Shown piece after piece: positions 955-23,012 of a stretch of 30,396 bases of DNA. The position numbers and the translations under genes were made by a program. A model generated the notes under the pieces. That model was not told the origin of the DNA. It did not search any database and saw only the letters and a program-made list of their open reading frames with translations. The stretch spans positions 1-30,396 of the IMG/VR virus record IMGVR_UViG_3300048577_000466; one strand, written 5' to 3'. Numbering within the stretch: the first letter of the stretch is position 1; every line of letters begins with the position of its first letter. The DNA is from a virus (Duplodnaviria > Caudoviricetes).

Positions 955-1185
955 CTATTTATTGTCATGACTCATTTCAACCAACGTTTTTAGGTCTGCT
1001 GAGAGTTGATAATTGTCTCCAACTCCATGAATTATTCTCAATAGTGCCTGCACACCATATACTTGATTCATTAAATTCTGTGTATACTGCTGTTGCAGTG
1101 CCGCACAATCTTTTTCGTAGGCGGCATCTGCATCAGCTTTCAGTTTTTGGATTAGTGTAATTTGCTCTTCTGTAAGTTCGATCAT
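955..1185 (-). CDS. Hypothetical phage protein (possible tail fibre chaperone)
   Basis: 76 aa; ATG lies 1 nt after the stop of the large tail gene. Confidence 0.7.
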   Translation of the reverse strand: MIELTEEQITLIQKLKADADAAYEKDCAALQQQYTQNLMNQVYGVQALLRIIHGVGDNYQLSADLKTLVEMSHDNK

Positions 1186-1186
1186 A

Positions 1187-4100
1187 TTAACTACCTGTAT
1201 AACCAGTATTCGGATCGGTGCTTGAGACTGCCTTGATCCAACGTGTTCCAGACGGCGTCAAAACTTCAACGTCTTCTGTATTGATCGTGTGCCTGTGAGA
1301 CGCTGGTGTTCTGGCATTTGACAATCTTGAATCATCACCAGCACAGACAGTGCCAGATGACGTGCCAACATTGAGACCCGAGGAATTGCCAAATGTCGGT
1401 TTGCTGGTAATGTCCCCCCACTGCACACCGTACACACGAGATGCGGATACGGTGCCAGCCGTGTAGATTCCGTTGCTATCCCACCATCCAACTTGTAGGG
1501 CCCCACTGTACCTAATAAGTGATCCAGTCCATTGCAGGCTGCCTGTATACATCTGCGATGCTGTGACGCCTGTGGAATTGATCACTAAGGAACTACTGCC
1601 GCCGCCAACAGTGCCGCCCTTGATCGTAACTGATGTGGGGCTGACAGTCACATTGCTGGCAACACCACCAACCACAAGTGAATTAGTAGCGACAAGACCA
1701 GCCAGCAAGACAGATGTCTCAATAGCAACCATTTTGAAGGTGCCACTGCTTTTGCTGAAAACCGAAGTGTCGAAGTTCTGAGCCTTCAACATATCGACCA
1801 CGTTTTGAGAGATTGCACCTGTCGATGGATCAAATGCAAAATCAGTGCTGTTGATTAGAGGTTGTAGTTTTCCACCAGTAACCGTAAGACCCTTCAACTT
1901 GGAAGTATCTGAAGCAGTCAAGTCGAGACCAGCCGAAGCCGACAATGTGACTGTAGATGACGTCACATATGCACCCGGCGTGCCATCTTTGTTTTCGCCA
2001 GCGACACGGACACGAACATATTGCGTGGATTTATCCCAATCAAACCAGTCCGTAGAACTGACAAGAGTTGTTCTGTAGACAGGTCCAAGAGGAATCCAGT
2101 CAGTGATCGGATTCGTTAGACCTGAGTCGTACCAAAAGCGCATCTCACGAATGTACTGCTCTGTCGTGCCCAATGCGGCATTTGCTGAGACAGTGATGGT
2201 CGGTCGGAATTTCGGCACGCCAGCAATTGTAGAAGTCGCCAACGTAAATGACACTCCTGTTGGTGCTGGTGGTGCGGTCACTGGATCAACTGTCCCAATT
2301 GTCGATGACGTGATCCAATTACCTACGCCACCAGTCGAATTCAACGAGCGAATTCGCATTTTGGCATACGAAATGTAAGTATGACGATCAAATGGTCCGA
2401 ATGGTGTTTTGTCTGTCCAGTCAAGACGGTTGCCTAAGTCGATCCATTCCGAATCAGGCGTTGTTGTTGCACCCGAATCCAAATAGAACCTTGCCTGTGC
2501 CTGATAGCCAATGATTGCAGGATCAGTTGGATTAGTAAACGATGGCGTAATTGTGAACGATACGTTGTTGCCGCCAATGGTAAACGAAACGCCTGTGATG
2601 TCTGATGGCTGTTGATAGCTCACAGCCTTTGGCACAAGCGCACCCGTGCCCGACATAGTGACCCACGCAGATGCCTGACCATTGCCGTTGACGGCCTTCG
2701 CCCGTGCGAAAACATAACGATCAACTGTCTGCCGGGCGAATGGACCGATGGTCACACTGGTTGTATTTTTGCCGTTTTGGTCGGCTGTGGTCGGTGCTTG
2801 CCAACCAGTGCTGAGCAATGTGCCAGTCGGTGTGTCGAGATACTGAACCTCAATTGCATAGCCCACATTGCCGCCTTTGTTCGATGGCAAGGTCCATGTC
2901 GGTGTCAGCGAAAACACATCTGGCTTCGACGAGTCAACAGCAATGGTGATGCCAGTAGGAGCAACAGGAGCATCACTGACACTTACAGCACCATCAATCA
3001 TCGACTGCGTGATTGAGATTGCAATCCAGCTTGAACCATTTGCCAACGTGTGATCTTTATAACCAAGTTGACCATTCGTAGAAACTGACAAAACGTGGAA
3101 ATACAGAGTTGTCGGTGCCGAAGGCTTGTCCATGTTGACCGATACAACTTGCAAGTTGCCAGGAGGATCTAATGCGGGATTGCTGGTGTACGGCTGTGCT
3201 GGATAAGACAGCACTTGACCATCAGCCAATTCGATCATTGGCAACGCAGCAATTAGCGGTGTGACTCTCGATGGCGGCTGTGGGTATGGCGGTGCGTATT
3301 GTACGGACACATCCATAGTGCCGTCAGAATTGGACACGACCATGTATCCAGATCCGTTGTAATTGGTGTTGAGCGTGACGTCATCCAATGTGGCGTCAAT
3401 CGGCAATGCAGTAATTGCACTACGTGCCGATGTTGTGACCCATGTAGATTTTGTATTTTCAAAGTTGATCAGAGCAATTCTTGCTTCAACTTCGAATTCG
3501 CCAGAACGTTTTTCGAATGGACCATCTGTTGCTGTCAGTGACGATGCCAAATCAAGTGTTACACCTGTTGTGACCCAATCACTGTCAAGCACCCAGACGC
3601 CACTTGTCTTAGTCCAATAACGCACTTGTCGAATTGTTCCTGTCGCAGTTCCAATGTTCGACGGATTTGTCCAAGCCCAATTGAAACCAAATTGTTCATT
3701 CAGGTCATTGAGAGTGAATGCCAGACTTGCAACAGGTGGTGGCGCAGCAATGGGCACACGCTGATCCGACAACGGCACTGTGTTGTATGCGGTCCATGTG
3801 GTCGTTCCAACATTGCTGAATGCACCCGCCGTGTTGCTCGACAAAATGCAATCCGAGAATCGGACATTGCAGGTATCTGCTTTCACGCCATAGCCTGTGT
3901 TTGCAGTGCTCTGAGTGTTCGTGATTGCGATGTCTGTCACACGCTTCACACTGATGCCGTCCACAGAGTTACCTGTTGCAATGCAGTCTGTGATGTTGGC
4001 GACAGGAATCAATCCAGCCGTGGCATTGTTCAGGATGCCGACACCTGTTGTGCAACCTGTGACTGTGCAGGCGTTGTAGATAACCGACGTCGGCACACCT

Positions 4101-6811
4101 GCACCAGTGTCAGAGATAGCCATGATGCCGCCTGCTTTGCCGTCTTTGGCAGTCACAGCGTCAGCAGTGATGGTTCCTGTGCAATTGCTGAAGTACAGCA
4201 GGTTATCGACGGCATTTGCTTGGTTGGTCTTGTTGCCATCGAGGATGACGCCCTCGATGTATGGTTCAACACAGTTGGTCACCAGCAACAGACAGGAACC
4301 TGCTGGTGCATTTGCTTTCTGCTTCAGCGTGCCGCCGCCGTAGATGTAGGGCGAGGTCTTGCCAGATACGTACACACCATTCGTAAGGAACGTGTACCCG
4401 GCAGGAATCTTCAATGTCGTGTTGTCGTTGATGGCGTTCTGGACTGCCAGAGAATCATCAGCCACACCGTCACCAAGTGCGCCGTAGTCGAGAGGAGTTT
4501 TCTCAACAGCGTCCTCAAAGTACAGTTGCAAGCTGTCGATGTCGATGGAGCCCGACTGAAGCTTTCCAATGAAGGCAAAGAACGACAGATACACAGCGCC
4601 TGCCGGGGCCACTCCGTGGCCCGTCAAGTGTGTCCAGGTGCTCGTAGTGCCCTCTGGATACGAGAACACGAAACCACCGAGATATGTCTGTGCTGCGTTG
4701 TAGAAGCCTACCTGTGTATAGAGGTTGTTGCCTGCTGCCTTGACCGCCGAATTCGTGCGATACCAACCCTCAAACTTGAAGGATTGACCTTCGACGACTG
4801 GGAAGAATCCAGAACCGTTGTAGCTGTGTTTTACGGATGCTGCGATGGATTGACCACCAGCGATGCGTAAGAACTTGCTGCCCGACTTTGCGCCGCCAGT
4901 CTGAATGCTTACGTACGAGGTCAACGGAACTTCGACGTTCCACTCTTCCAGCGCTCTTTCGAAGTCTGGATTGAGCAGAAGGTTTGCGCCCACGGTCTGT
5001 TGTGACGGTGCGCCCTTGTACATGCGGATTGCGTCGATGTCCACTGTGCCGTTGACGAGCTTGCCCCAGACGGCAATCAAGGATGCCCTGGTCGCATTCT
5101 CTGGCACCTGACCTGAGACACGGAAGAACGTCCAATCGTACGTTCCAAGTGGAACTGTGGATTGGATGGAAGAAATGTAGGTTCCCGATGCCGATTGAAA
5201 ATTGATCTGTGGCGACGAGATGCCTTCACCACCTGAACCAAGCGCATAACCATTGGTCCTAATCCAATACTCGACTGTGTACCAATCACCAGCAGCGACA
5301 GGGAATGAATGGTCGCTGTATTGGCTCACGTCACCATAGGCGGTCATCGGCTCCAGGTGGAGATACTTGCTGCCAGACTTCGCACCAGTCGAGCCCACGG
5401 AAACACTGCTCGCAATGGGCGCATAGACAGTCCAACCGTCGAGGTCGTGTTCGAAATCAGCATTGACGACGATGTTGTCGCCAACCGACGCCAGACCAGA
5501 TGTGCTGCTCGATGTGTCTGGCGGTAGTGTGATCGTGCCTCCAGAGAGAACCGACTGACCTGTCATGGCTGAGAACGCATCAAAGCCATCGCTCAAGATG
5601 TTGCCTGATACACACTCGTACGACCGTCTGAGGATCTTGCCGAGTAGGTTTGTACGCACGGATCTGACGACGTAGTTCCCTGGTGGCACACCTGTGACAT
5701 TGATGTTGATGCGGTCACCGATCTGCGATGTGATTGTGTCGGACTCGAAGGTCACGACATAAGAGATGTGCTTGTACTTTTCGAGCAGGCGGTCAGCAAT
5801 GGATTGTGCATCGGTGATGGTCGTGTCGTCGCTGACGTTGATGTTTTTCACGAACACGCCACTGCCGCCAACGAGCGCCTGCATTGCCGCAACGCCATCA
5901 GCATCAACAGCGTCTTTGACGTCGATCACTCGACCACGATAGTCAACGACGATGGTTGCGCCTGACGCTGGTGCAGTCGTGAATGTAATCTCTCGACCAC
6001 CAGCAGTCCAATAGACTTGTTTGCCCGTGTCTTGGCCGAACACGCCGATGGTCTGCGTGGTTCCGTTGACCTTGACTGTCGGCTGTGAAGCTACAGGGTT
6101 ATTGACGCTGAAGTCGGTCTGCGTGGCATTGCCAGTAAATGTCTGGCTGAAGTCTTTGATGAAATTGGAATACCGAACAATGATGGTGTTAGCGTACTGC
6201 TCTAATGTTGCCCGTGACGCCAATGTCTGCGCACGCACATTATGACTTGTGTCGGTGACGACAGCACTGATGATTCCTGCGTCCCAGTTGCCGAATTGAA
6301 GAGTCTTGGTGTAATCAATCTTCCAGAATTTCTTGTACAAAGTTGCCAGAGTGTTTAACGCATCGGTCAGTGTCGTATAGACGGGATTGAACACTTCTGT
6401 CGTCAGATCACCAGCGCCAGCAGGAACCATTGAAAGATTGACGCCATCAGCACTCATCGGACTGTTGGTGATGAGATCACGAACGATGTTATTCAGTCGA
6501 GTGTCTTTTGCCCATTCATATTCACCACTCGAATACCGAGACGGCAACGCATTCCAATCTTGAGCCGAAATGGACATGACACGAGTATTGCCATGTACAA
6601 GTTTGATGCTTGTGTCCGTCACAAATCCAGCGAACAGAATTAGCGCATCATCTGTGATTGAGATGGTCTCGCCAACTGGAATGGTAAGAGTGCCGAGTAC
6701 ATCTGGCAGAACAAGCTCACAGGTGCCAACTTGACCCAAGGTGCTTGAGATGGAAAGTGATGATTCTGCAATATGGTGAGTTGTGGAGCCGATTGTTACT
6801 GTCAAAGACAT
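1187..6811 (-). CDS. Large multidomain tail tip / receptor-binding protein
   Basis: Follows the tape measure gene; hub-like N-terminus, two CBM-like repeats (N-x-x-x-N-x-DFE...W), beta-helix cap motif DYGALGDGVADDS, four FN3/Ig-like repeats, C-terminal GDDSRLSNAR fibre motif. Confidence 0.85.
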   Translation of the reverse strand: MSLTVTIGSTTHHIAESSLSISSTLGQVGTCELVLPDVLGTLTIPVGETISITDDALILFAGFVTDTSIKLVHGNTRVMSISAQDWNALPSRYSSGEYEWAKDTRLNNIVRDLITNSPMSADGVNLSMVPAGAGDLTTEVFNPVYTTLTDALNTLATLYKKFWKIDYTKTLQFGNWDAGIISAVVTDTSHNVRAQTLASRATLEQYANTIIVRYSNFIKDFSQTFTGNATQTDFSVNNPVASQPTVKVNGTTQTIGVFGQDTGKQVYWTAGGREITFTTAPASGATIVVDYRGRVIDVKDAVDADGVAAMQALVGGSGVFVKNINVSDDTTITDAQSIADRLLEKYKHISYVVTFESDTITSQIGDRININVTGVPPGNYVVRSVRTNLLGKILRRSYECVSGNILSDGFDAFSAMTGQSVLSGGTITLPPDTSSSTSGLASVGDNIVVNADFEHDLDGWTVYAPIASSVSVGSTGAKSGSKYLHLEPMTAYGDVSQYSDHSFPVAAGDWYTVEYWIRTNGYALGSGGEGISSPQINFQSASGTYISSIQSTVPLGTYDWTFFRVSGQVPENATRASLIAVWGKLVNGTVDIDAIRMYKGAPSQQTVGANLLLNPDFERALEEWNVEVPLTSYVSIQTGGAKSGSKFLRIAGGQSIAASVKHSYNGSGFFPVVEGQSFKFEGWYRTNSAVKAAGNNLYTQVGFYNAAQTYLGGFVFSYPEGTTSTWTHLTGHGVAPAGAVYLSFFAFIGKLQSGSIDIDSLQLYFEDAVEKTPLDYGALGDGVADDSLAVQNAINDNTTLKIPAGYTFLTNGVYVSGKTSPYIYGGGTLKQKANAPAGSCLLLVTNCVEPYIEGVILDGNKTNQANAVDNLLYFSNCTGTITADAVTAKDGKAGGIMAISDTGAGVPTSVIYNACTVTGCTTGVGILNNATAGLIPVANITDCIATGNSVDGISVKRVTDIAITNTQSTANTGYGVKADTCNVRFSDCILSSNTAGAFSNVGTTTWTAYNTVPLSDQRVPIAAPPPVASLAFTLNDLNEQFGFNWAWTNPSNIGTATGTIRQVRYWTKTSGVWVLDSDWVTTGVTLDLASSLTATDGPFEKRSGEFEVEARIALINFENTKSTWVTTSARSAITALPIDATLDDVTLNTNYNGSGYMVVSNSDGTMDVSVQYAPPYPQPPSRVTPLIAALPMIELADGQVLSYPAQPYTSNPALDPPGNLQVVSVNMDKPSAPTTLYFHVLSVSTNGQLGYKDHTLANGSSWIAISITQSMIDGAVSVSDAPVAPTGITIAVDSSKPDVFSLTPTWTLPSNKGGNVGYAIEVQYLDTPTGTLLSTGWQAPTTADQNGKNTTSVTIGPFARQTVDRYVFARAKAVNGNGQASAWVTMSGTGALVPKAVSYQQPSDITGVSFTIGGNNVSFTITPSFTNPTDPAIIGYQAQARFYLDSGATTTPDSEWIDLGNRLDWTDKTPFGPFDRHTYISYAKMRIRSLNSTGGVGNWITSSTIGTVDPVTAPPAPTGVSFTLATSTIAGVPKFRPTITVSANAALGTTEQYIREMRFWYDSGLTNPITDWIPLGPVYRTTLVSSTDWFDWDKSTQYVRVRVAGENKDGTPGAYVTSSTVTLSASAGLDLTASDTSKLKGLTVTGGKLQPLINSTDFAFDPSTGAISQNVVDMLKAQNFDTSVFSKSSGTFKMVAIETSVLLAGLVATNSLVVGGVASNVTVSPTSVTIKGGTVGGGSSSLVINSTGVTASQMYTGSLQWTGSLIRYSGALQVGWWDSNGIYTAGTVSASRVYGVQWGDITSKPTFGNSSGLNVGTSSGTVCAGDDSRLSNARTPASHRHTINTEDVEVLTPSGTRWIKAVSSTDPNTGYTGS

Positions 6812-6832
6812 GCCAGTATTTATGTGGAGACG

Positions 6833-6879
6833 AAAAAAGGGCGTCGGCAGGAGATAACGTAGGAGATGCCGACGCCCTT
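6833..6879 (-). terminator. Intrinsic terminator after the tape measure gene
   Basis: GGGCGTCGGCA/TGCCGACGCCC stem followed by T6 on the minus strand. Confidence 0.8.
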
Positions 6880-6913
6880 GGACGGTATGAACAATAGTAT
6901 GTATACGTTTCGA

Positions 6914-9457
6914 TTAGAGCTTCAGTCCTCGTGCTCGCAATCTACCAATAAAGGCATCAGTGAATGAGTCGAGCGCTCCGTCAGTCATGAAGTAACCACC
7001 ATTGACCACGACTTGCATGGTGCCACCAGCGCCGACAAGTGAGTTGTCAGCCATGCGGACACGGACCTCAGAATCAGGAAATGAGTACACACCAAGACCA
7101 CCTGTGATGAGTTGTTTGATTCTGTCCTCAACACCTTTCATGGCTGGCAAGTACTCATTGATCTGTTCGTTCAGACCTGTGGAATTACCAACCATGCCAC
7201 GGATGCCAGACTCGATGGCGTAAAGCTTCGAATTCATCTTCGACATCATGAACATGCTGCCGAGTGATCCGACTGCGCTGGCAATGCCAGAGACCATATT
7301 GACGGCACCAGCAATGCCGCCAATTGAGCCCAATGCACCACCAGCGCTCGAAGCTGCCGATGAGGCTGACTTGGCTGCTGATGAACCAATGTCAGCCGCC
7401 TTATCCACACCAGAGCCAAGGATCTTGCCGAGTCCGATTTTCTTCAAGCCGCCCCCAAGCACATCGACGATGCCATTGATGCGGTCTTTGGTCAGCACCA
7501 TCTTGGTCAGGATCTCAGCAATGATGGCTTTGCCGATCTGCTTCAACACGCTGACGGCAGTCTCTCCAAAGCCCTTCCAATTGACGATGGCTTCTGCAAT
7601 CGACTGATTCATGTTTGTCATGATTGTCGAGATTTCTTTTAGCACGCTGTCTTTCTGTTGATGTGAGCCACCACCTGTCTTGCCGTTGTAAACCTTCAGC
7701 AATTCCTCATACACACGACGGAATTCTTCCACACTGATTGCGCCCGACTGGTAAGCAGCAATGGTTGATTTCATTGCATCCTGGACCACGGTGCCTTTCA
7801 TCACTTCGTTGGTCTTGATGTTCAGTTCCTTGAGCCGGGACTGATACTTGAACATTGCCTCTGTGGTCTCGTCATAGGAAACCTTCATGCCTTTGGGCAA
7901 TTCCAGGTCAGTCAACTTGGCATTTGCACGAAGCATCTTTTCGAGGCCCGCCGCCACCTGATCGAGCGATGTAACCTGCTTTGCGTATTCTGCCGACTGT
8001 GCTGACAGTTCTGTGCGGAAACCAGCGCCAATCTGTAGCAACTCAGTTGTGAGTTGTTTGTCGAGTGCCTTGCTGGTGTAGTATGCGTCGAGCCACTTCT
8101 TAGCGTCCGTGTATCGTTCGCCGATCAAACCAAGCTCTGCTCTTTCCTGGATAGACAATTCCAGCTTGGCGTGTCCCGGCTGGTAATACTTAATGGTCTC
8201 TTCGTTCAGCCCTTTTTGAGCGGCAAGTTGCTTTTGGAGTGCTTCTGCACGCTTCTTTGACTCTGCTGCGCCGTCTACCCTGTCCACAGCTTCTTTTGCT
8301 TGACGTACCAGGGCTTCTTCTTGAGCTTTTAACTTTTTTTCAAGGGAGCCGTACAAAAGGTTATCGCTGTTTTTTTGCACTTGCTGACTATGCAGATATT
8401 CCTTGTAGCCAACAGCAGCAACACCGAGAGCCGCCATCGCTGCAACACCAGCAGGAGAAAACAAGAGCTTAAATGCGCCTACGCCCTGCAAATACGTGAA
8501 TGCTGTTGCGAGATCCTTGACGACTGTGATCACACCACCGATACCACTAATGATGAGCGGAGTGACAACCACACCAATTGCAAACTTCGTCCAGAATGCT
8601 TTTGCCTCTGGATCAAGTTTTGAGAATTGCTCAGCCATCTCACCGAGCTTGGCCGTCATACTCTCAATTTTGGGAATAAGCTCCTGAACCAGAGGCATGA
8701 GGTTCTTGCCAATCTGTGCAGATGACCGAGAAATGGCGTCTTGCAGATTCTCGAAAGTGTTCTTTGTTGAGTTGCCTGCGGCTGGTAGCTTCTCCAGTCC
8801 GGACACAACCGTGTCGATGAACTGAGACGTACTGACGCCCATCTTCTGGAGCGCTTCCGGGTCGATGGTGCCGAACGCTTCCTTGACGATCTTGGCAACC
8901 TGCGGCGTGGAATTCATGAGCGGCTTCAGGTCATCGGCGGTCACCTTGGTTTTTGCAGACATCTGCCGCAACTGTTCGATGACGCCCTGAAGCTCAGCTT
9001 TGCCCTTGCCGACGCCAGCAAGGGCGTTGCCGAATGCCTTGATGTAACGTTCTGCCTGCTGTGCCGACAGTCCTGCTGATTGGAGGTTCACCGACGCTCT
9101 GACGGCTTCTTCCAGACCGAGACCCGGCAACTTGGCAACCTCAACAAGTCGCTTCATCTGCGCCTGTGTCTCTTGTGCCGATCCAGCTACGCCACGGAGT
9201 GCCATCTCAAGCGACTCCATGTCCATAGCGGACTTGACCGCCAATGTGCCTGCGCCAATCAGTGGGAGTGAGATTGCGACTGATAGTTTTGTGCCGAGAC
9301 CTGTGAGGCGGTCACCGAGTTTATCCAAGTTGGCGAACTTGGTTTCGACGCCCTTGACGGTCTTTTCCGCTGTGGCGAGCACGCCAAGCATCGCATCTTG
9401 ATACCCGTCAATCTGAGCACCAACCTTTACAATTAAATCGCCTAATGTGTTCGCCAT
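6914..9457 (-). CDS. Tail tape measure protein
   Basis: 847 aa, Ala/Gly/Lys-rich and helical; MANTLGDLIVKVGA start and tape-measure-like domain; follows the chaperone pair. Confidence 0.9.
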   Translation of the reverse strand: MANTLGDLIVKVGAQIDGYQDAMLGVLATAEKTVKGVETKFANLDKLGDRLTGLGTKLSVAISLPLIGAGTLAVKSAMDMESLEMALRGVAGSAQETQAQMKRLVEVAKLPGLGLEEAVRASVNLQSAGLSAQQAERYIKAFGNALAGVGKGKAELQGVIEQLRQMSAKTKVTADDLKPLMNSTPQVAKIVKEAFGTIDPEALQKMGVSTSQFIDTVVSGLEKLPAAGNSTKNTFENLQDAISRSSAQIGKNLMPLVQELIPKIESMTAKLGEMAEQFSKLDPEAKAFWTKFAIGVVVTPLIISGIGGVITVVKDLATAFTYLQGVGAFKLLFSPAGVAAMAALGVAAVGYKEYLHSQQVQKNSDNLLYGSLEKKLKAQEEALVRQAKEAVDRVDGAAESKKRAEALQKQLAAQKGLNEETIKYYQPGHAKLELSIQERAELGLIGERYTDAKKWLDAYYTSKALDKQLTTELLQIGAGFRTELSAQSAEYAKQVTSLDQVAAGLEKMLRANAKLTDLELPKGMKVSYDETTEAMFKYQSRLKELNIKTNEVMKGTVVQDAMKSTIAAYQSGAISVEEFRRVYEELLKVYNGKTGGGSHQQKDSVLKEISTIMTNMNQSIAEAIVNWKGFGETAVSVLKQIGKAIIAEILTKMVLTKDRINGIVDVLGGGLKKIGLGKILGSGVDKAADIGSSAAKSASSAASSAGGALGSIGGIAGAVNMVSGIASAVGSLGSMFMMSKMNSKLYAIESGIRGMVGNSTGLNEQINEYLPAMKGVEDRIKQLITGGLGVYSFPDSEVRVRMADNSLVGAGGTMQVVVNGGYFMTDGALDSFTDAFIGRLRARGLKL

Positions 9458-9464
9458 AAATGAG

Positions 9465-9494
9465 AAAACCCCCGATGAACTATTTATCGGGGGT
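9465..9494 (-). terminator. Terminator hairpin containing an ATAAATA box
   Basis: ACCCCCGAT/ATCGGGGGT stem then TTTCTC; box at 9481-9487. Confidence 0.6.
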
Positions 9495-10138: not shown

Positions 10139-10142
10139 ATTG

Positions 10143-10565: not shown

Positions 10566-10617
10566 CGGAAAAAACCTCCGAGATGAGAATTCTCAGAAGT
10601 TATTTATGAGATGACAA

Positions 10618-12930: not shown

Positions 12931-12937
12931 GAATGTG

Positions 12938-14101: not shown

Positions 14102-14102
14102 A

Positions 14103-14732
14103 TTACACCTTGTAGATCTGCCGGATTTGCTCCAGCAGTGCCGCCGACTCATCAACGTCTCGTTGTGACTTCAGCGTTTTGTAGCCTGACGAAATGATCG
14201 TCTTGGCTTCTTTTTGAGAAAAGCCTGCATCCCGCAAGATCTTCTCTAAATCTCTTTCTGTTAGTTCATTCGCCTTTACGCTGGAGACCTGAGCCTCGAC
14301 ATTGCAAGGAAATGTGACTAAGCTGATTTCGTATAATTCGATTTGCTTCAATTGCCGTACGCCATCGCTCCACACAGCGCCGCCAACAGGAATGGCGTAA
14401 CCAATGGACAACCCAGTGATTGCTTTGAGCTTGAGCAATTCGTAGGCGTCATTACCTTTTTCGGTCTTGATCGCAAGCTGACCTTTGACGAGCAAACCAT
14501 TCTCGTCCTCTGCAAGTTCCAGGCAGACGCCAATCACATCATCTGTGTCGTGCTGGTAGCAAATCGGGACATACTGCTTGCGATTCTCCAGCGTGGCCGA
14601 AAATGCCCCCGGCAGAATTACATCATTCGCCTGATCGACGTTGCCAAACACAGCAGCGTACCCTTCAAAGATGCCCTCTTCGGTCGGTGCTGCTTTCAGA
14701 GCGAATTGATATGTGAGCTTTTTGGTTTCCAT
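14103..14732 (-). CDS. Prohead protease, HK97 family
   Basis: FEGYAAVF..VD...D...GAF, QH, GLSIGY, LYEISLVTFP motifs. Confidence 0.95.
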   Translation of the reverse strand: METKKLTYQFALKAAPTEEGIFEGYAAVFGNVDQANDVILPGAFSATLENRKQYVPICYQHDTDDVIGVCLELAEDENGLLVKGQLAIKTEKGNDAYELLKLKAITGLSIGYAIPVGGAVWSDGVRQLKQIELYEISLVTFPCNVEAQVSSVKANELTERDLEKILRDAGFSQKEAKTIISSGYKTLKSQRDVDESAALLEQIRQIYKV

Positions 14733-14744
14733 GTGCGTCTCTCT

Positions 14745-15938
14745 CTATTTATTCGACGGCAAATCCTGGATCGGACTCATGTTGAGTTGCACGGTGATGT
14801 CATCGCCGCCATCAATCGGTGTGAGACGCTCAAGACGACGTGCCTCATTACGAGTCATGATGCCGTTTTGGACCATTTGCGAGTAATATGCTGCTCTTGC
14901 TGCACTATCACCACGCATCAAACTGGAAACGTTGAATTCAGGAAAGATAATGCCTTTATCCTTCTGCTCGATCAGTGCTTTCACAATAGCGGCTTCGATC
15001 TTGGCGAGATACGGCATGAGCGTGAATTGCACAAATGACATTCCCTGACTTTCGATATTGCTGAACGTGGCGTGCGACAAATCACCAATTAAATGAGGCG
15101 GGACACGGAAGATTCTTGCTATCTCTTCAATGGAGAACTTGCGACTCTCAATGAATTGTGAGTCCTCTGGCGGAATCGTGATCTGTTGCCATTTGAAGCC
15201 AACAGGCAACACGTCAATCTTGTGCGCATTGTCAAGCCCTTGATTGTTGGAATTGAATCTTGCTTTGAAGGCCGTGATTTGATCGGCAGTCATCGCCTCA
15301 GTCGGACTGACAAATCCGGCTGGTGTGGCACCGTTGCTGTAAAAGCGTGCGCCGTACTCTTCAGAGGCAACGGCCATGCCGAGGGCTTGACGGCAGGTGC
15401 CGATTGGACTCAAACCAACCAGACCATCAAACGAGAACAATTTGACGTGGAAGATGTCCCGAGGCTGATACTCTTTGATTCCTGTGGCGGTCGAGACACG
15501 ATAGAGGATTTGCTGGTCCACAGCCTGAACTGTCATGTTGGCGGGATTGACCGGAATCAGTCCAATAACCTCCATGCCAGATCTGACAATCACCGAATAT
15601 GCATTACCCCATGTCGCAAGGCTGGCAATCATGGACTCCCAATATTCATTGGATGTCATCCACGCATTCGGCTCTTGAGAGACGATGTAATCGAGTTTGT
15701 GCTTGATGCGAGATGTGGAATCGTCCGAACCACGTTTATAGAAATGCAGAGGCAGATTGCCGCCAACCTCTGCCAACAGACGCACAGACGACCAAACCGC
15801 CGCAATGCCTAATGCAGATTCCTCTGTTACGACTCTGCCGACGTTTGTGCTGTAGATGTTGAGTCCGGTGAGTGTTCGATTGGTCGGCAAAAGACCAAAA
15901 TAGTCCAGAATCTTAATTGCGGCGGCTTTAATGTTCAT
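14745..15938 (-). CDS. Portal protein, HK97 family
   Basis: PNAWMT, GLVGLSPI, NGATP.G, QFIESRKFSIEEIARIFRVPPH, SNIESQ, MT.NEAR motifs. Confidence 0.95.
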   Translation of the reverse strand: MNIKAAAIKILDYFGLLPTNRTLTGLNIYSTNVGRVVTEESALGIAAVWSSVRLLAEVGGNLPLHFYKRGSDDSTSRIKHKLDYIVSQEPNAWMTSNEYWESMIASLATWGNAYSVIVRSGMEVIGLIPVNPANMTVQAVDQQILYRVSTATGIKEYQPRDIFHVKLFSFDGLVGLSPIGTCRQALGMAVASEEYGARFYSNGATPAGFVSPTEAMTADQITAFKARFNSNNQGLDNAHKIDVLPVGFKWQQITIPPEDSQFIESRKFSIEEIARIFRVPPHLIGDLSHATFSNIESQGMSFVQFTLMPYLAKIEAAIVKALIEQKDKGIIFPEFNVSSLMRGDSAARAAYYSQMVQNGIMTRNEARRLERLTPIDGGDDITVQLNMSPIQDLPSNK

Positions 15939-17533
15939 AATCTGATAGAGACTGGATCAGACAACCAGTCATCTATTAAGTTATTTATCGCCCTTGCTTT
16001 TTGGTCCGACGTATTACGCTGAGCCCGATCAAATGCCATAATTGACGCAATCACGCCGTCGATGCGTTGATTATTCTGCCGCTTGTTGGATTTGATGACA
16101 CGGATGTTATTGTTGGCGTCTTCTTTGACGGTCGAGCACCCAATATTCCACCGCAGTACAGGATTTGCGCCATGTATGATGTTGCCCAAGTAGGCGTGCT
16201 CTTTGAGGGCCTTGGTAGGATTGGTGAAAGCCATGATGGATTGGTTAAAATCCCATGTCTCTATGCCGCCTTCTTGTAGTTCCTCGATTACCTCTGCCGC
16301 CATCGCACGGTCAACGGCGATTTCGACAAGTTCGTACTTGGTCGCAACCTCCAAGATGTGTGAGATCACGTACTTATGCCGCACAACAGGACCAGGGCAA
16401 AGTGTCAGATACCCTTGTTTTGCCCATTCGGAATAAGGCACTCTATCCAAGCGCTCTTTTTCAGCCAAGTTTTCGGCTGGCATGAAAAAATGAGGCAAGA
16501 TGGCGTACTTCTCGTTATCGAGTGGGAAAACGAGTGAAAAGCAGGTCAAATCGTGTTTTTGGGACAGATCAAGACCGCCGAAACAGCGCTTACCTGTCAA
16601 ATCTGGCAATGGCTCATTGCAGGCATCCCATCGGTCGAGCGGGATATATGGCGTCTCAGAAGCGAGAACCCACTGATTCAAGCTCAGCAGGCGGAATCTG
16701 AGCATTGCGCCGGGGTCATTCAACGCTGTTTTGTACTCATCCTGGAATGTCGAGAGCCGTAAGAATCCTTTGCCCTGGTCACAATCCTCATCTGTAGCCA
16801 GGGCTGGATTTGCAGCAAACCAATATTGCTGGTCGGAGATGTCGCAATCGGCTGGTGCCTCACAGATATAGGCGTAATAGCGGTCGTCTGTGATCGTGCC
16901 GTCTACGATGCCTCTGGCGTACTCGTATTGCTGGCGTCCAATACCAGTGAGATTGTTGGATGCGGTCGTGATGGAGATGACGAGAGGCTGACGGCGATAC
17001 TTCATGCTGGACACCATGGCGTCGTAGAGATCCCTGGTATCCCAGAACGCAAGCTCGTCACAGATCACAGCAGACGCATTGAGTCCGTATGCAGACGAGG
17101 CGTCCGAAGACATCACCTTGAGTCTGCGTGTCCCGTAAATGATGCGCTTTTGTGAGTCGATCACCCGGCAGATCTTGTTGAGTTCCGGATTCGAGCGGAC
17201 CATACGAGCGGCATAGCGATACACCACAGATGCTTGCTCCCGATCACGGGCGCAGATGTAGACCTGTGCGCCCTCTTCGCCATCTCCCAGCAAGAGATAC
17301 AGCGCCAACATTGCAGTGAGGAATGATTTTGCGTTCTTTCGTGGGAGAAAAATTAACGCATGTCGATATTGCCTGAGTCCGTCATTGTCAACTGTGCCAA
17401 AAATAGGATTGATGATATTGTCAATCTGCCACGGTAGTAATTTGACATTTGTGCCTGCCGCTGGACCTTCAAAGTGTTGTCCGTACGTTTCGCAAAACTG
17501 AATTACTCTATCTGCTTTTACTTTGTCAAACAT
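15935..17533 (-). CDS. terL: Terminase large subunit
   Basis: LLPWQ, Walker A-like PRKNAKS, Walker B ICDE, ITTA, nuclease GGLDLS..DL and RIDG motifs. Confidence 0.95.
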   Translation of the reverse strand: MFDKVKADRVIQFCETYGQHFEGPAAGTNVKLLPWQIDNIINPIFGTVDNDGLRQYRHALIFLPRKNAKSFLTAMLALYLLLGDGEEGAQVYICARDREQASVVYRYAARMVRSNPELNKICRVIDSQKRIIYGTRRLKVMSSDASSAYGLNASAVICDELAFWDTRDLYDAMVSSMKYRRQPLVISITTASNNLTGIGRQQYEYARGIVDGTITDDRYYAYICEAPADCDISDQQYWFAANPALATDEDCDQGKGFLRLSTFQDEYKTALNDPGAMLRFRLLSLNQWVLASETPYIPLDRWDACNEPLPDLTGKRCFGGLDLSQKHDLTCFSLVFPLDNEKYAILPHFFMPAENLAEKERLDRVPYSEWAKQGYLTLCPGPVVRHKYVISHILEVATKYELVEIAVDRAMAAEVIEELQEGGIETWDFNQSIMAFTNPTKALKEHAYLGNIIHGANPVLRWNIGCSTVKEDANNNIRVIKSNKRQNNQRIDGVIASIMAFDRAQRNTSDQKARAINNLIDDWLSDPVSIRL

Positions 17534-17904
17534 TATCGGATGAGATCATTACGCTTAATTGCGTTAGCCTGATCGTCGGCGTGTTTCATTCTTTTGCGTG
17601 AGGCTGGAGTCAGTCCGTATTCTTTGGAAAGCTGGCGGACAGTTTCCGAGGCTGAATTGACAATGCTGATTAAGGGATTCGGTGCAGGCCAGCCAGTCTT
17701 TGCGGAGATCACAGTCAGTCCCTGTGTTTGCAATTGCTGCTGTGCTGTGACCATTCGAGAAAAGGCACAACATAGCGACGTGAGCCCTTGTAGATCGGCA
17801 TCGGTCAGCTTATCGCCCAATAAGAGGACAATACGGTTCCATTCTGTTGTCGCTAATTCGTCGAGATAAGATGGGGCGGGGAATTGTGGTTTGCGCTTTG
17901 CCAT
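17533..17904 (-). CDS. terS: Terminase small subunit, P27 family
   Basis: P.YL...A..EW.R, NPLI, EYGLTPASR motifs; overlaps the terL start. Confidence 0.92.
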   Translation of the reverse strand: MAKRKPQFPAPSYLDELATTEWNRIVLLLGDKLTDADLQGLTSLCCAFSRMVTAQQQLQTQGLTVISAKTGWPAPNPLISIVNSASETVRQLSKEYGLTPASRKRMKHADDQANAIKRNDLIR

Positions 17905-17954
17905 GTGTGTTCATACCCCTTTTAGCAATCAGTCCTTGGGGCAGAACTATTTAG

Positions 17955-18046: not shown

Positions 18047-18415
18047 CTATACGCCGTCGAGTTTTGACTTGCGCTCTGAGGCGGTCTTCATCGAGTGGCA
18101 GGAGTGACAGAGTGATTGCAGTGCGCCATACCAGAACAGGCGCTCGTCGCCACGATGCGGAGTGATGTGATCCACGTCTGTTGCCACAGTGACAAGCTGA
18201 CGTGATGCACAGTCACGACACAATGGCTCATTGCGCAACTGCTGTGCTCGTACTTGTTGCCATCTCACGGTCGAATACAAATGATGCCCTGGTCTGTCCC
18301 ACTTCGCCTGCTGCTGCGGGTCGTAGGTCTTGCGGCGTGATGCGTGGTCGTCACAGTAGCCGTTGGTTGCGGCATTGGGACAGTTGCTAACTCGACAAGG
18401 TTTCTTTGCAGGCAT
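18047..18415 (-). CDS. Packaging-associated HNH endonuclease (HK97 gp74-like)
   Basis: PLCRDC...ATDVDHITPH.GD...LQSLCHSCHS.KT; directly upstream of terS; start MPAKK at 18415. Confidence 0.9.
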   Translation of the reverse strand: MPAKKPCRVSNCPNAATNGYCDDHASRRKTYDPQQQAKWDRPGHHLYSTVRWQQVRAQQLRNEPLCRDCASRQLVTVATDVDHITPHRGDERLFWYGALQSLCHSCHSMKTASERKSKLDGV

Positions 18416-18417
18416 GG

Positions 18418-18452
18418 AAAAAACTAAAGGGCAGACCATTAATGATCTGCCC
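18418..18452 (-). terminator. Terminator-like hairpin just before the packaging HNH start
   Basis: GGGCAGATCAT/ATGGTCTGCCC stem followed by TTTAGTTTTTT. Confidence 0.6.
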
Positions 18453-18577
18453 CAACTCTTACTACATGATATTAATTCTATTTATGCTTGTTGATTAGTT
18501 CGCCAAGCAATTCAATCTTGCGCCTTAAACGTTCGGCATGGGCGGCGAAGAGATCATGCCATTCTTGAAGTTCGTTC

Positions 18578-19066
18578 TTATTCATGGAGGCAAATGTTCC
18601 GCACTGTCGAATAAGAAATGCCCATCATTGTTCCAATCTGATTTTTGGAAAAGCCGTGACCGTAAAGCATACGGACAATCTCTCTTCCCTCTTCGTCGAG
18701 GACAGTGCCAATGCGTGTGGCAATGTGACGTCCTCTGGTGATGGCGTCGTGTGTATTGTCTTTGCAGGTTCCAGTGCGCAGATGATTGGGATTGCAGCAC
18801 AGGCGATTGTCACACGAGTGCAGAATCATTAGCTCTGCCGGATCAATGCCATAATAGAGAAAATATGCCACTCGTGAAGATTTGAAATTATCGTGGTTGA
18901 TTGAGATTTGACCGTAGCCACCAAATGATGTTGATGCAGTCCAATTCCAGCAATCATTGCGTTGTCCGATTTCTACTTTATTCCAGAAACGGCGAATCTG
19001 CTGTTTGTTCATTGTTGGAATTGTACGGACTCGGAATCCGTTATGATGTGTTGTCTTGTTGTTCAT
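18578..19066 (-). CDS. Free-standing HNH homing endonuclease-like protein with C-terminal HTH
   Basis: RFWNKV...CWNW...GYGQ...HSCDNRLCCNPNHL..GT..DN..D; C-terminal GFSKNQIGTMMGISYSTVRNI; GGAG RBS before ATG 19066. Confidence 0.85.
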   Translation of the reverse strand: MNNKTTHHNGFRVRTIPTMNKQQIRRFWNKVEIGQRNDCWNWTASTSFGGYGQISINHDNFKSSRVAYFLYYGIDPAELMILHSCDNRLCCNPNHLRTGTCKDNTHDAITRGRHIATRIGTVLDEEGREIVRMLYGHGFSKNQIGTMMGISYSTVRNICLHE

Positions 19067-19114
19067 ACCGTTGTGCTCTCCAAAGCACAACAGTATTTAG
19101 ATTTTCGGAGTATT

Positions 19115-19360
19115 TCAGATTGACGTGTCTAAAATGCTTGATACGCCGTGCTTTAGCAAATGCATTTTAAGTGCGGCCACGGCTTCGCTCTTGAGTTTGT
19201 AAAACTTGTCCGACGTTAGGCGATGCGTTTTCTGATATGCTAATTGCGACATCCCATCAAGATGCATGACCGATGCAAGTAGATCATAATGGAATGGTTG
19301 CTCATTCTTGAATGTTGCGAACAGGTGCTCGATATAAGATTCTTTTGTGCCAATGAACAT
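19115..19360 (-). CDS. Small protein resembling a sigma region-4 / ArpU-like HTH
   Basis: MHLDGMSQLAYQKTHRLTSDKFYKLKSEAVAALKMHL resembles the sigma4 pattern; judged by eye only. Confidence 0.5.
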   Translation of the reverse strand: MFIGTKESYIEHLFATFKNEQPFHYDLLASVMHLDGMSQLAYQKTHRLTSDKFYKLKSEAVAALKMHLLKHGVSSILDTSI

Positions 19361-19368
19361 ATCGACAT

Positions 19369-19626
19369 TTAGCCGACGTCAACGCAGGCAATCGTCACAG
19401 AGCGCTCAACGATCTGACCCGAACCACAAGTCATGAGCACTGTCAGCGTATACGTTGTGCCTGCCGTGAGACCCGAGACCAAGCACGTTGCAGCATCGGC
19501 ACTGGTGTCCTGTGTGGTCACCGTGGCTGATGGCGTGATGGTCCATGTGGCAGTCGTGATGGTGTCGCCTGCGATGGTCTGGCGGTATGCGAGTTTTTCT
19601 GTTTCGGCTTGTTCGAAATAATTCAT
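19369..19626 (-). CDS. Small Ig-like fibre adaptor protein
   Basis: 85 aa, Thr-rich beta pattern GDTITTATW...VSG...G.TY.LT...T.G...ERS. Confidence 0.65.
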   Translation of the reverse strand: MNYFEQAETEKLAYRQTIAGDTITTATWTITPSATVTTQDTSADAATCLVSGLTAGTTYTLTVLMTCGSGQIVERSVTIACVDVG

Positions 19627-19635
19627 GTGTGTTCC

Positions 19636-22260
19636 TCAGTCCCGGCTGACGGGTCTTGTATTGGTGATGGTTCGTGATACCGTCTTGGGCGCACCGATGA
19701 CAGGTGACAGCGTGCGGACTCTGCTGATGACCTGGATACCAGCCAACGAGCCAACGAGCGTACCTTGCCCTGTCAGAGCCCCTGCAAGGTGCTTTCTCGT
19801 GATGAGCGTCCCTGTCATGCCAGATGTGGCTTGCAACGCACCTGAGAGCAACTGACGACGCACCAGGGCACCACTCATCGAGCCTGTGCCACTGAGAGCA
19901 CCTTCAATGCGAATGACAGTCGTGCCAGCGCCATACAGGGCACCAGTCAACGTGCCTGCGCCCGTCAATCCACCGCTGAGCAAGATGCGCTTGCCGAGTG
20001 TGCCAGCCAAGGTGCCAGAACCAGACAGATTTGCCGCCAACAGCGCACGTCTCGTGATGGTGCCAGATAGCGTGCCTGTGCCCGTCAGTGCGCCACTGAG
20101 CAAGATGCGCTTGTTGAGAGCACCAGCCAGAGTGCCAGAGCCAGACAGATTTGCCGCCAGGAGTGCTCTGCGTCCCAGAGAGCCCGACATTGATCCACTG
20201 CCGTACAGGGCACCTGCAATCGTGATGTTGGTCGCCGGATCACTCCACAGCCAGCCTGTGTTGCCGCCGCCGTCCGTCGAGTGCGACCCGGCGTACCAAG
20301 TGGCGGTGCCTGCGGCAGTGATGTCCTGGAGGTACAGGTAGTCCTCTGCGATCTGCGATGCCGACGACGTCAGTGTTGCTGGAGATCCAAAGGACGTGGC
20401 CAAGAGTGTTGCCAAGTTGCCAGCACTGCCATTGCTGGTCATTGCGTTGATTGTTGTGGTTTGAGAGGACGTCAGCTTCAGACCATTGGGGAGACCAGCA
20501 TTGTTGACCGCAAGAGTGCCAATTGTGCAAGTGCCAGCGTTGTTGTACGTGATGTTGTCACCCGCAAAAGTAACTGTGGCGTACGTCTTGGTTCCCGAGC
20601 TTGTAAAGGACTTGGCAATGGATGTTGTGTTCGAGACGACAACGTTAGAAGTTCCAGCATTCAAAGTGCCGTTTGCTTGTGCGTTCCACACTGCACCAGT
20701 TCCAGATAGTGTTACTGTACTTGTGCCCAAATTACAGAATGCCAAAGCACTCGAATTTAGAGTGAACGCTGTCAATACCGTCACGCTGTAGTCATTGGTC
20801 GTCAAGGTGCCAGCATTCACGTTGAGGCTTCGACCACACGACAACGCATCTTGCAGCGTCAGCGTGCCACCAGGAGCATTTACAGTGACAGTCGGAGAGA
20901 TTTGCAATCCCGCTGTTGTCAATGTGTAAGAACCACGACCAGAGAATTGTACGACTGTGTTGATATTCGCAATCGACATTGTTGGCACGAGTGTCAAAGA
21001 ACCATTAACAGTCGAGATAATGCCCGACGTAAAAGTAAGTGCAGGCGTTCCAGTCGTACCCGTAAAGTCAACATTTGCGCCCATGCGTGGCACATCGACA
21101 GTGATCACTCGTCCTGCTGGTGTGAATGCAGATGCGACGACAACATTGTCTTGAGGCAATGGCATGCGTGACGTCCAAGCATTTGCTGACCAACTTCCAG
21201 ATGCTGTGCCCGACCACGTTTGTGTTGCAGGCGTGGTGAATGTGATATTGCTGTTGCCGGATGCGTCTCCGCAAAACCCAGTGATCGCAGATGCATTGTA
21301 AGCTTCGGTCAATGCAATATCTTGCAAGTCAACATTGGACCACGCAATAGTAGCGCCATCATTGATAATCGTGCGTTGTGTGCCAGCAACACTGCTCGAA
21401 ACAAACAATCGATTGACAACAGAATTGCCAGCAAACGTCAATGTACCAGAGACCATAACGTCACCAGCAAATGCGATGCCGTCTGTCTTGACTGCGGTTC
21501 CAGTGCGTGTAAGATTTGCAAATACAGAATTCGCAGCGGTAAAGGTGGATACACCACTACCGTTAATAACGACGCTGAGACCGCCAAAATCCTTTGATGG
21601 ACCAAAGTTGACGTTAGCGGCAGCACCAGTACAAGTCACAGTTGCTGTGTTTGTACTTACGGTCAGATTGAAGTTGGCCGAAGTAGCCCACGGAGATGTG
21701 CCTGACAACGTGATTGCGGACGAGCCCAATGTCAGCGTACGGACATTCGAGTTGTTTGAAGAGAACGCAGTAGCTGTGATTGATTTGCCGTTGGTGTCAA
21801 ATGCACCATATGTCAACGTGATCGTCGATCCAGTTGCCGTTAGATTGTCTTGCAGTTGCCAACTTCCACCAACACCAGAAAAGGTGATATTGCCGAGAGT
21901 CTTGCCAGCAGTCGTGATGGTCTTGCCAGTACTCGTCGAATTGAATGTGATTGCTGACGTTGCTGCATTGCCCAAGCTATACGTCATGCCAGACGCCAGC
22001 GTAAGACTGCCGCTGACGGTCAGAGTGGTAGCTGTCGGATGGCTCAGCGTCCCTGTAAAGCCAGTACAGGTCAGATCACGACACACCGAGGAAGAGCTTA
22101 GGGTGACGGTGCCAGAGCCCGATGAGCCGTTAAAGAACACGTCATCAGCCGCTGTAGGAACAGACGCACCTCCAGCGCCACCACTTGTAGCGCTCCATTT
22201 GGAGCCTGCTGTAGCGTCCCAGGTGCCGCCTCCTGTAGAAACCCAATAACGATTTGCCAT
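19636..22260 (-). CDS. Virion fibre/adhesin protein with beta-helical repeats
   Basis: MANRYWV.GG.W...WS..SGG.GGASVP.A.DDV.F N-terminus, Gly/Thr/Ser-rich repeats, C-terminal 20-aa repeats. Confidence 0.75.
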   Translation of the reverse strand: MANRYWVSTGGGTWDATAGSKWSATSGGAGGASVPTAADDVFFNGSSGSGTVTLSSSSVCRDLTCTGFTGTLSHPTATTLTVSGSLTLASGMTYSLGNAATSAITFNSTSTGKTITTAGKTLGNITFSGVGGSWQLQDNLTATGSTITLTYGAFDTNGKSITATAFSSNNSNVRTLTLGSSAITLSGTSPWATSANFNLTVSTNTATVTCTGAAANVNFGPSKDFGGLSVVINGSGVSTFTAANSVFANLTRTGTAVKTDGIAFAGDVMVSGTLTFAGNSVVNRLFVSSSVAGTQRTIINDGATIAWSNVDLQDIALTEAYNASAITGFCGDASGNSNITFTTPATQTWSGTASGSWSANAWTSRMPLPQDNVVVASAFTPAGRVITVDVPRMGANVDFTGTTGTPALTFTSGIISTVNGSLTLVPTMSIANINTVVQFSGRGSYTLTTAGLQISPTVTVNAPGGTLTLQDALSCGRSLNVNAGTLTTNDYSVTVLTAFTLNSSALAFCNLGTSTVTLSGTGAVWNAQANGTLNAGTSNVVVSNTTSIAKSFTSSGTKTYATVTFAGDNITYNNAGTCTIGTLAVNNAGLPNGLKLTSSQTTTINAMTSNGSAGNLATLLATSFGSPATLTSSASQIAEDYLYLQDITAAGTATWYAGSHSTDGGGNTGWLWSDPATNITIAGALYGSGSMSGSLGRRALLAANLSGSGTLAGALNKRILLSGALTGTGTLSGTITRRALLAANLSGSGTLAGTLGKRILLSGGLTGAGTLTGALYGAGTTVIRIEGALSGTGSMSGALVRRQLLSGALQATSGMTGTLITRKHLAGALTGQGTLVGSLAGIQVISRVRTLSPVIGAPKTVSRTITNTRPVSRD
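19951..20170. repeat. Intragenic tandem repeat, 120-bp period
   Basis: 19951-20050 closely matches 20071-20170 (CTGAGCAAGATGCGCTTG and CCAGACAGATTTGCCGCCA occur in both). Confidence 0.85.
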
Positions 22261-22261
22261 A

Positions 22262-22435
22262 TTATCCGATCCGACCCGTCACGACGCCTTTGCTGTCGAT
22301 TGCTAATACCAAGGGAAATGACCTATGACCATCGTCGATCTGCATCGTGATGGTTGCTCCGATGACATCACCAGAGTCCGAATAGACGTAGGCTGTGGTC
22401 ACACTATCCCTGCGTAGCGTTATTGTTCGTGTCAT
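22262..22435 (-). CDS. Hypothetical 57-aa protein, absent from the ORF track
   Basis: MTRTITLRRD...VVTGRIG*; TAATG overlap with the upstream gene; ends 1 nt before the next ATG. Confidence 0.7.
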   Translation of the reverse strand: MTRTITLRRDSVTTAYVYSDSGDVIGATITMQIDDGHRSFPLVLAIDSKGVVTGRIG

Positions 22436-22614
22436 TACTCAACCTCAGTAGCCGTCGCTTGATCTGCGACCATTGCCGCCCAGGCGTCATAACGTGCTTG
22501 CTTGTCCGTCTCGATTCGCTCAGGCGTCAATGACGACCACTCTTCAAGGGTGTAGTAGAGGGCGTCAGCGTAATTGCCCATGCTGAATCGGACCTGAATG
22601 AGGATCGTGTCCAT
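22435..22614 (-). CDS. Hypothetical 59-aa protein, absent from the ORF track
   Basis: MDTILIQVRF...ATEVE*; GGAG RBS; fills the gap in the operon. Confidence 0.75.
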   Translation of the reverse strand: MDTILIQVRFSMGNYADALYYTLEEWSSLTPERIETDKQARYDAWAAMVADQATATEVE

Positions 22615-22625
22615 GCAGGCTCCAG

Positions 22626-22985
22626 TTAGTCAACCGTGATTGTGAATGTGCCCGACGTGATCTCTGCTGTGTCTGCTGTGCCGCCTGCGCTGTAGGTCTT
22701 GCTGGCGCTGGCCGGACCACTCCACAAGAAGTTGCCGCCAGAAGCTGCGTCCCACACGCCGAAGTGCGTAACAGTGCAAGCTGGCATTCCGGTGAATAGT
22801 ACTGTCGTCGATAATGTGACGACTCCATTTGTTGGTCCGGAAAAGGTCCATGATTTGCGGCTGTATGTGCCGCCTGTGACTTCGGACGTTCCTGTTTCGC
22901 CAGGATCTGCGGTGTGAAGGGACAGGTAAGATCCGGTAAGGTTGTCGGTGAGGATTTTGTTTTCGAGATAGTTTGAGATACTCAT
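22626..22985 (-). CDS. Small virion fibre-associated protein
   Basis: SNYLENKIL...YLSLHTADPGE.G..EV.GG.Y.R...THFG.WDAASGGNFL, a pattern common in phage structural modules. Confidence 0.8.
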   Translation of the reverse strand: MSISNYLENKILTDNLTGSYLSLHTADPGETGTSEVTGGTYSRKSWTFSGPTNGVVTLSTTVLFTGMPACTVTHFGVWDAASGGNFLWSGPASASKTYSAGGTADTAEITSGTFTITVD

Positions 22986-23005
22986 AGTGCGTGATGCCTA
23001 TGAGT

Positions 23006-23012
23006 TATTTAT
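23006..23012 (-). promoter_or_regulatory. ATAAATA late-promoter-like box, first of a family (others at 19094, 18479, 17948, 15982, 14746, 11489, 10601, 9481, 6817, 956)
   Basis: Recurrent coding-strand motif near late gene starts; matches the core of the T4 late promoter TATAAATA. Confidence 0.75.

Follow-up and report, generated by a model that had tools for sequence, protein, structure and literature searches.

The question raised by this locus is what a small integrated element with an HK97-type head does with sequences that look like the late promoters of phage T4, and which factor could read them. The element occupies the record IMGVR_UViG_3300048577_000466 of IMG/VR (Duplodnaviria; Caudoviricetes). 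We have analysed the whole record, 30,396 nt, which we will call the window. It is a nearly complete integrated element of about 30 kb: it has an HK97-type head, a tail and a tyrosine integrase placed beside half of a tRNA-Leu gene. Eleven boxes precede its late genes; judged from their sequence and position, they are very probably promoters of the type read by gp55, the late sigma factor of T4. The element itself is in our opinion a likely satellite virus with its own head and tail, which would obtain late sigma factor, replication and lysis from another phage.

Boxes upstream of the late genes

Nine ATAAATA and two CTAAATA boxes are found on the minus strand, where the structural genes are also encoded (Table 1). 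The initial annotation had listed these eleven boxes, and every coordinate is exact. It had also claimed that ATAAATA is absent from the plus strand and from the accessory region. Both claims hold: there are 0 ATAAATA on the plus strand against nine on the minus strand, and 0 of the 11 boxes fall in the accessory and integrase part (23,100-30,396). Their placement upstream of late gene starts is correct in all 11 cases, but the distance range given there, 5-63 nt, is not: the true spacers are 5-43 nt. In shuffled sequences ATAAATA occurs 1.01 times on average (both strands) with a maximum of 4, and none of 100 shuffles reaches nine. The TAAATA core occurs 11 times, always on the minus strand, with a shuffle mean of 4.61 (both strands together) and again no shuffle in 100 that reaches the observed number. 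The observation is real and is confirmed.

Each of the 11 boxes has one of the 26 late starts within 70 nt downstream (binomial p about 1e-12); the 70-nt windows before these starts make up 8.1% of the region. When hexamers are ranked by their proximity to late starts, TAAATA is the first of 3,688. Five boxes are within coding sequence, which is not above the synonymous-codon expectation (mean 2.8; 140 of 1000 reach 5). Therefore the signal lies in position and strand, not in the raw count in genes.

T4 late promoters, which gp55 reads together with gp33 and the gp45 clamp, have the sequence TATAAATA at -13 to -6, and phage Aeh1 has the variant CTAAATA (PMC1524935). Basal transcription is obtained with gp55 alone, while gp33 is described as a mimic of region 4 at the beta flap (PMC2988020). 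The boxes of the window resemble these promoters in the TAAATA core with A or C before it, the -11 to -6 geometry, a start predicted 6 nt downstream and their large number before virion genes. No conserved -35 element is found at the boxes of the window and of its relative G002, they do not correspond to the ordinary promoter of the host, and G002 has a sigma factor of the gp55 family, as described below. These features support the T4-late-type reading of the initial annotation. It had not noticed that the element has no detected sigma or replication gene, a finding which makes a helper-dependent satellite probable. In contrast with T4, the boxes belong to a 30-kb integrating element with an HK97-type head, gp55, gp33 and gp45 are not detected in cis in the window, and the first two bases of TATAAATA are not kept. 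Further upstream there is an A at -26 (26 nt before the predicted start) in 15 of 20 boxes of the window and G002, which may be a weak contact or chance.

The T4 genes e and soc have ribosome-site hairpins with an embedded late promoter. A similar arrangement is predicted here on structural genes of a temperate element, with the box in or beside the 5' arm. Hairpins over the ribosome site or start codon follow the boxes at 23006, 19094, 17948, 15982 and 10601, and the predicted RNA start falls within their 5' arm. When RNA begins 6 nt after the box, the predicted accessibility of the ribosome site increases in 8 of 9 leadered sites, strongly in 4-5 of them; no shuffled control accompanies this comparison, and a shorter RNA folds less anyway. 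Two boxes of the window and four of G002 are followed by exactly 5 nt and then ATG.

Related elements and the late sigma factor

The closest relative is found in Paludibaculum fermentans T20B24 (G001). Its terminase matches at 93%, so that the host of the window should be in or near Bryobacteraceae. The G001 element is complete: it has 29.1 kb between 22-bp repeats (3' end of tmRNA by inspection) and a GC content of 52%, versus 62-64% in its flanks. It shares the late genes and all 11 boxes with the window; its integrase differs. All 66 box bases are identical (66/66); the ungapped flanks are about 75% identical. In terL we count 202 synonymous versus 38 replacement codons, which indicates that the virion genes are under purifying selection.

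G002 is also complete and more distant (terminase 54%, integrase 81% identical), a 29.5-kb record with 29.2 kb between tRNA-Leu att repeats. It has nine boxes on the coding strand and 0 on the other. They are not simple copies of those in the window: the terL box is at another codon and TGA stops precede several of them. No replication, repressor or lysin family was found in G001 or G002 among the ORFs (open reading frames) scanned. The same modules go undetected in three elements of 29-31 kb with two integration sites and two integrase types.

Other searches added little to this group. A single-protein terminase scan of viral contigs gave no match, a capsid alignment scan returned G002 again and nothing further, and a pattern search in 11 genomes had no match. 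The best terminase match in cultured phages is 39.8%. The next Bryobacteraceae terminase relatives (G134, G058, G013 and G010, 37-41%) were set aside: they belong to other elements, without boxes. The terminase P0002 (85% identical) has SLNN at its C-terminus where the window has AINN, which could encode CTAAATA.

G002 codes for a protein of 221 aa at the start of its late region. It matches the late-sigma family phrog_234 (E 5e-36), T4 gp55 in PDB 7d7c (7d7c_F, E 7e-13) and the late sigmas of cultured T4-like phages; a word search with it gave no close homologue. A six-frame search with a profile of 12 related gp55s detected such a gene neither in the window nor in the G001 element (264 bits for G002, below zero for both). 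None was found in the 10.1-Mb G001 genome, with G002 as positive control, nor in 401 genomes of the family and 401 of the class, which are samples and often incomplete.

The gp55 slot of G002 is occupied in the window by a gene for a protein of 81 aa. The 11 bases before it are the same as before the G002 gp55 gene (TAAATG, 5 nt, start), and an HNH gene comes next in both. For its structural model (pLDDT 83, two sequences), each of the top 24 VIA rows is a sigma-factor chain; the best Z, 8.4, is middling. Foldseek gave 0 matches for the model at E 0.001. The protein has no close homologue and no match in PHROG, Pfam or NCBIfam, to a RinA/ArpU-type profile or any other.

G741 (L230-L232), of 39.7 kb, was reached by an outward search from the G002 gp55. 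It has an unrelated virion type: a serine integrase, a primase-helicase, gp55, terminase and portal of other families, and tail genes, with no lysin or repressor among the ORFs scanned. At its ends there is 80-84% similarity to a gene present in three Bryobacteraceae genomes, and it appears to be inserted in a permease-like host gene. In G741, 13 of 17 coding-strand boxes are at most 90 nt from a hand-picked start (p 2e-11); boxes also precede the gp55 gene (at 151 nt) and an excisionase-like gene upstream of the primase, and they are found before early as well as late genes. A quick tree separates the 12 closest gp55s, including G002 and G741, from 21 gp55s of larger viral loci; T4-like neighbours were inspected for 6 of these 21, and G002 and G741 are the only contexts seen among the 12. 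From these sequences, the gp55s of small integrating elements seem to form a separate lineage and not to result from a recent capture. A set of gp55-like sigmas (P0129-P0139) comes from contigs that measure 39, 40, 54 and 523 kb, with P0132 on the longest; a C-terminal helix-turn-helix-like extension as in G002 is present in some of them. The own contigs of P0134 and P0137 were not found; what was returned instead were phages with a T4 context.

Gene content and the conserved non-coding stretch

The window has 181 ORFs, of which 35 chosen ones were scanned with PHROG and 23 with Pfam; NCBIfam was also used. The families matched are terS, terL, portal, protease, HK97-type capsid, connectors, major tail, tape measure, tail-tip, two HNH endonucleases and the tyrosine integrase. 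None of the ORFs scanned matches a replication, repressor, sigma or lysin family. The window is not a phage of the T4 superfamily, which would have a T4-type replisome and virion, gp45/gp33 and over 100 kb, versus the HK97-type head, non-T4 tail, integrase and about 30 kb found here. It is not of the autonomous lambdoid or HK97-like prophage type either: repressor, replication and lysis families are not detected, and there are 11 boxes instead of a single late promoter. The left att is absent because the record was cut, as a provirus, out of a contig of 628 kb; from synteny with G001, under 1 kb is missing at that end, approximately.

Several genes have particular features. A family-2 glycosyltransferase (11488-12147, minus strand) is found among the head-tail connector genes, also in G001 and not in G002; it may glycosylate the virion. 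In the region 19369-22985 the gp80-like, 874-aa fibre-like and gp77-like genes belong to the fibre families of podophage GP4, and G002 holds there an unrelated gene of 296 aa. Two tandem paralogous accessory genes (25101-26664, minus strand), with a 59-nt repeat 85% alike, have no known family. Of the proteins shared by the three elements, that of 148 aa belongs to a common viral family of no known function. That of 123 aa was discarded as a family marker: it has no fold match and is also present in an unrelated G001 island.

A non-coding stretch upstream of the late module is 86-88% identical across the three elements and more conserved than the genes. Its folding z is -3.2, and 13 of 58 consensus pairs show double changes (six sequences, two groups). 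It is a candidate for a structured RNA or a protein-free replication origin. Rfam gave no meaningful match for it; a resemblance to RNase P or a group I intron, seen by eye only, was dropped. Diverged copies are found in four other genomes, in islands linked to tRNA genes or insertion sequences and without virion genes. CTATATA precedes most copies, and the core is full-length in 1 of 401 genomes. DNA pattern hits for the core were discarded as chance in 8 of 9 viral and 9 of 9 metagenome cases. A tRNA-Asn-linked island of G001 (G001:C3:631406-631863) has only the 3' hairpins of this element, with CTAAATA about 390 nt upstream.

Table 1. Boxes, genes and other features of the window, and copies of its non-coding stretch in other genomes
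Feature	Position	Strand	Remarks
ATAAATA	23006..23012	-	20 nt before gp80-like gene, first of the late module; ATG masked by a downstream hairpin
CTAAATA	19094..19100	-	27 nt before free-standing HNH gene (ATG at 19066)
Hairpin at the 19094 box		-	14 bp, covers ribosome site; 3' end of box within 5' arm
ATAAATA	18479..18485	-	39 nt before terminase-linked HNH gene
CTAAATA	17948..17954	-	43 nt before terS; ribosome-site hairpin, present in G001 too
ATAAATA	15982..15988	-	in 3' end of terL, 43 nt before portal gene; G002 box at another codon of the terL tail
ATAAATA	14746..14752	-	overlaps portal stop codon, 13 nt before protease-capsid unit
ATAAATA	11489..11495	-	exactly 5 nt before tail-completion ATG (predicted leaderless); same spacing in G001 and G002
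ATAAATA	10601..10607	-	35 nt before major tail gene; hairpin at ribosome site, also formed in G002 by a different sequence
ATAAATA	9481..9487	-	in loop of 12-bp terminator-like hairpin, 23 nt before tape-measure gene
ATAAATA	6817..6823	-	exactly 5 nt before ATG of 1874-aa tail-tip/fibre gene (predicted leaderless)
ATAAATA	956..962	-	17 nt before last late gene (ATG at 938)
Variant box TAAATG	19366..19371	-	5 nt before 81-aa gene; identical 11 nt precede G002 gp55 gene
Two small late genes	642..1185	-	last one: coiled coil, C-terminus hydrophobic; looks holin-like (inspection only)
Glycosyltransferase, tail completion, terminator, major tail, chaperones, tape measure, tail-tip/fibre	1187..12147	-	profile scan
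terS, terL, portal, protease, major capsid, head-tail adaptor and closure (HK97-type packaging/head)	12129..17904	-	profile scan
Two HNH endonuclease genes (free-standing; terminase-linked)	18047..19066	-	profile scan
81-aa gene	19115..19360	-	in the gp55 slot of G002; predicted stand-alone sigma-region-4-like helix-turn-helix
gp80-like, two small genes, 874-aa fibre-like, gp77-like adaptor	19369..22985	-	missing in G002
Hairpin-rich non-coding stretch, about 430 nt	23165..23604	-	upstream of late module; TATATA one-mismatch box at 23599-23604
Variable accessory genes	24072..29048	both	no known family; two small genes common to all three elements (27847-28218 minus, 28602-29048 plus)
Tyrosine integrase	29167..30270	-	open frame; TGCR, HDMRR, GHK and RY motifs
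5' half of tRNA-Leu(UAG)-like gene	30362..30396	-	att core; 94% like G002 att repeat
Copy of non-coding stretch	G001:C2:5034281-5034796
Copy of non-coding stretch	G002:C1:4819-5280
Copy of non-coding stretch	G125:C49:64697-64980
Copy of non-coding stretch	G202:C35:21119-21398
Copy of non-coding stretch	G327:C229:18691-18968
Copy of non-coding stretch	G360:C7:164297-164335		truncated

How the boxes may be read

If the boxes are late promoters, the RNA polymerase of the host with a foreign gp55 would start RNA about 6 nt after each of them. This gp55 could come from a large phage of the T4 superfamily or from a small gp55-bearing element: those of the G002 and G741 type could themselves be helpers. 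An RNA which starts at the box would make two genes leaderless; it would also free several ribosome sites that hairpins may mask in read-through RNA. In the absence of gp55 no late gene would be read and the integrated element would stay silent, to be switched on only once a gp55 phage enters the cell. We propose that the lack of a repressor is explained in this way, because the late genes could not be read without gp55. More speculatively, the 81-aa sigma-4-like protein may tune the switch, as a gp33-like partner or a competitor for the beta flap. In G002 and G741 the presence of a gp55 gene behind a box or variant would fit an amplifier that needs a trigger; it could also be a self-starting loop. 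As a tentative extension, these elements might form a class of repressor-less satellites with complete tailed virions. Their T4-type late promoters would be a sensor of infection, amplified by their own gp55 in G002 and G741. The window and G001 would have exchanged gp55 for the sigma-4-like protein, and the structured RNA would be a protein-free origin.

Several points weigh against a satellite whose late genes are read in trans. Of 33 sites, only 21 have a purine at the predicted +1. In the quick tree the gp55s with a T4-like context branch separately from those of G002 and G741 (support 87). No helper phage was found in the 15 of 64 parts covered by the gp55 scan, which returned mostly T4-like contigs. 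Accessory ORFs without a family could hide divergent replication or regulatory genes, given that the PHROG scan comprised 35 of 181 ORFs, and the last kilobase beyond the left end could still hold a sigma gene in the copy of the window. Finally, the element has a candidate regulator of its own, the 81-aa protein.

This protein is the basis of the main rival explanation, in which it has taken over activation. Control would be self-sufficient: the 81-aa protein, as a RinA/Mor-style activator, and a host sigma would read the inherited boxes, and host enzymes would replicate the element through the non-coding stretch. The gene has replaced gp55 in the same slot and has been kept, its model is closest to sigma region 4 (Z 8.4), and the non-coding stretch with its compensatory pairs is more conserved than the genes. 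However region 4 reads -35 DNA, and there is no conserved -35, only the weak A at -26. Sigma-70-type sites are at chance level (15 vs 13.0), and TAAATA cannot be aligned to the sigma-70 -10 element so that A-11 and T-7 are both matched. A box variant also precedes the 81-aa gene, and no lysin is detected. We consider this explanation unlikely.

It is still less likely that the element is a decayed prophage which lost its replication, lysis and sigma genes and keeps its boxes as remnants of an ancestor with gp55. Prophages often lose genes, and gp55-bearing relatives or analogues do exist (G002, G741). But decay does not agree with the same modules going undetected in all three elements at two sites, with open frames under strong purifying selection or with the full conservation of the box bases. 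Hardly better placed is an alternative sigma of Bryobacteraceae which would read TAAATA, the element being a unit like a gene transfer agent, switched on by host stress. Such hosts have many extracytoplasmic function sigmas, and gene transfer agents also resemble the element in that replication genes are not detected. Yet the initial annotation had called for a comparison with host promoters, and boxes with a following ATG show no enrichment in the G001 genome: there are 9 matches versus 6 for the control in 10.1 Mb, two of the nine inside the element. Besides, the element is low in GC, bounded by att sites and rare, and its sister encodes gp55. That the boxes are a by-product of stop codons or AT-rich junctions, or a translation signal, is very improbable: 4 of 11 overlap the stop codon of the preceding gene, but the other 7 do not, G002 has TGA before the box instead, no strand-specific excess exists at 70 more distant terminase loci or at 17 Bryobacteraceae terminase loci, and TAAATA ranks above all other hexamers.

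A satellite read in trans by gp55 can be compared with known systems. The cf-PICIs carry their own replication genes, whereas none is detected in the window. Like the window, they are integrated islands with HK97-type capsid, protease, portal, connectors, terS/terL and HNH; unlike it, they are described without tails, while the window has major tail, tape measure, terminator and completion genes (PMC10690885). MulchRoom and MiniFlayer also have capsid and packaging genes; key replication genes are missing there and none is detected here, and MulchRoom has a tyrosine integrase (PMC10690885). In contrast with MulchRoom, which is reported without tail genes, the window encodes a whole long tail with major tail, tape measure and tip. 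The word 'promoter' is absent from the main text of that paper. PICMI, satellites of virulent vibriophages, are similarly integrated and minimal, and activation by a virulent phage is proposed for them; they differ from the window by a reduced gene content and the use of helper particles, whereas the window encodes its own virion (PMC10803314). EPIPs are described without tail proteins (PMC12822802). Our literature search, which left out subscription papers and supplements, found no satellite or prophage driven by gp55-type promoters. The locus would function like a T4 late regulon; it contributes a close sister that has the sigma gene, and complete elements without detected replication genes.

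T4-type late transcription has been described as peculiar to T4-related phages (PMC2988020). Here the T4-type promoter, and in relatives its sigma, are found in small integrating elements, one of them carried by a named strain, P. fermentans T20B24. If the boxes are read in trans, the satellite would detect a phage by a new mechanism. The usual dependence would be reversed: head and tail would be its own, transcription and replication borrowed. If true, it would also point to an unknown gp55-bearing phage of Acidobacteriota.

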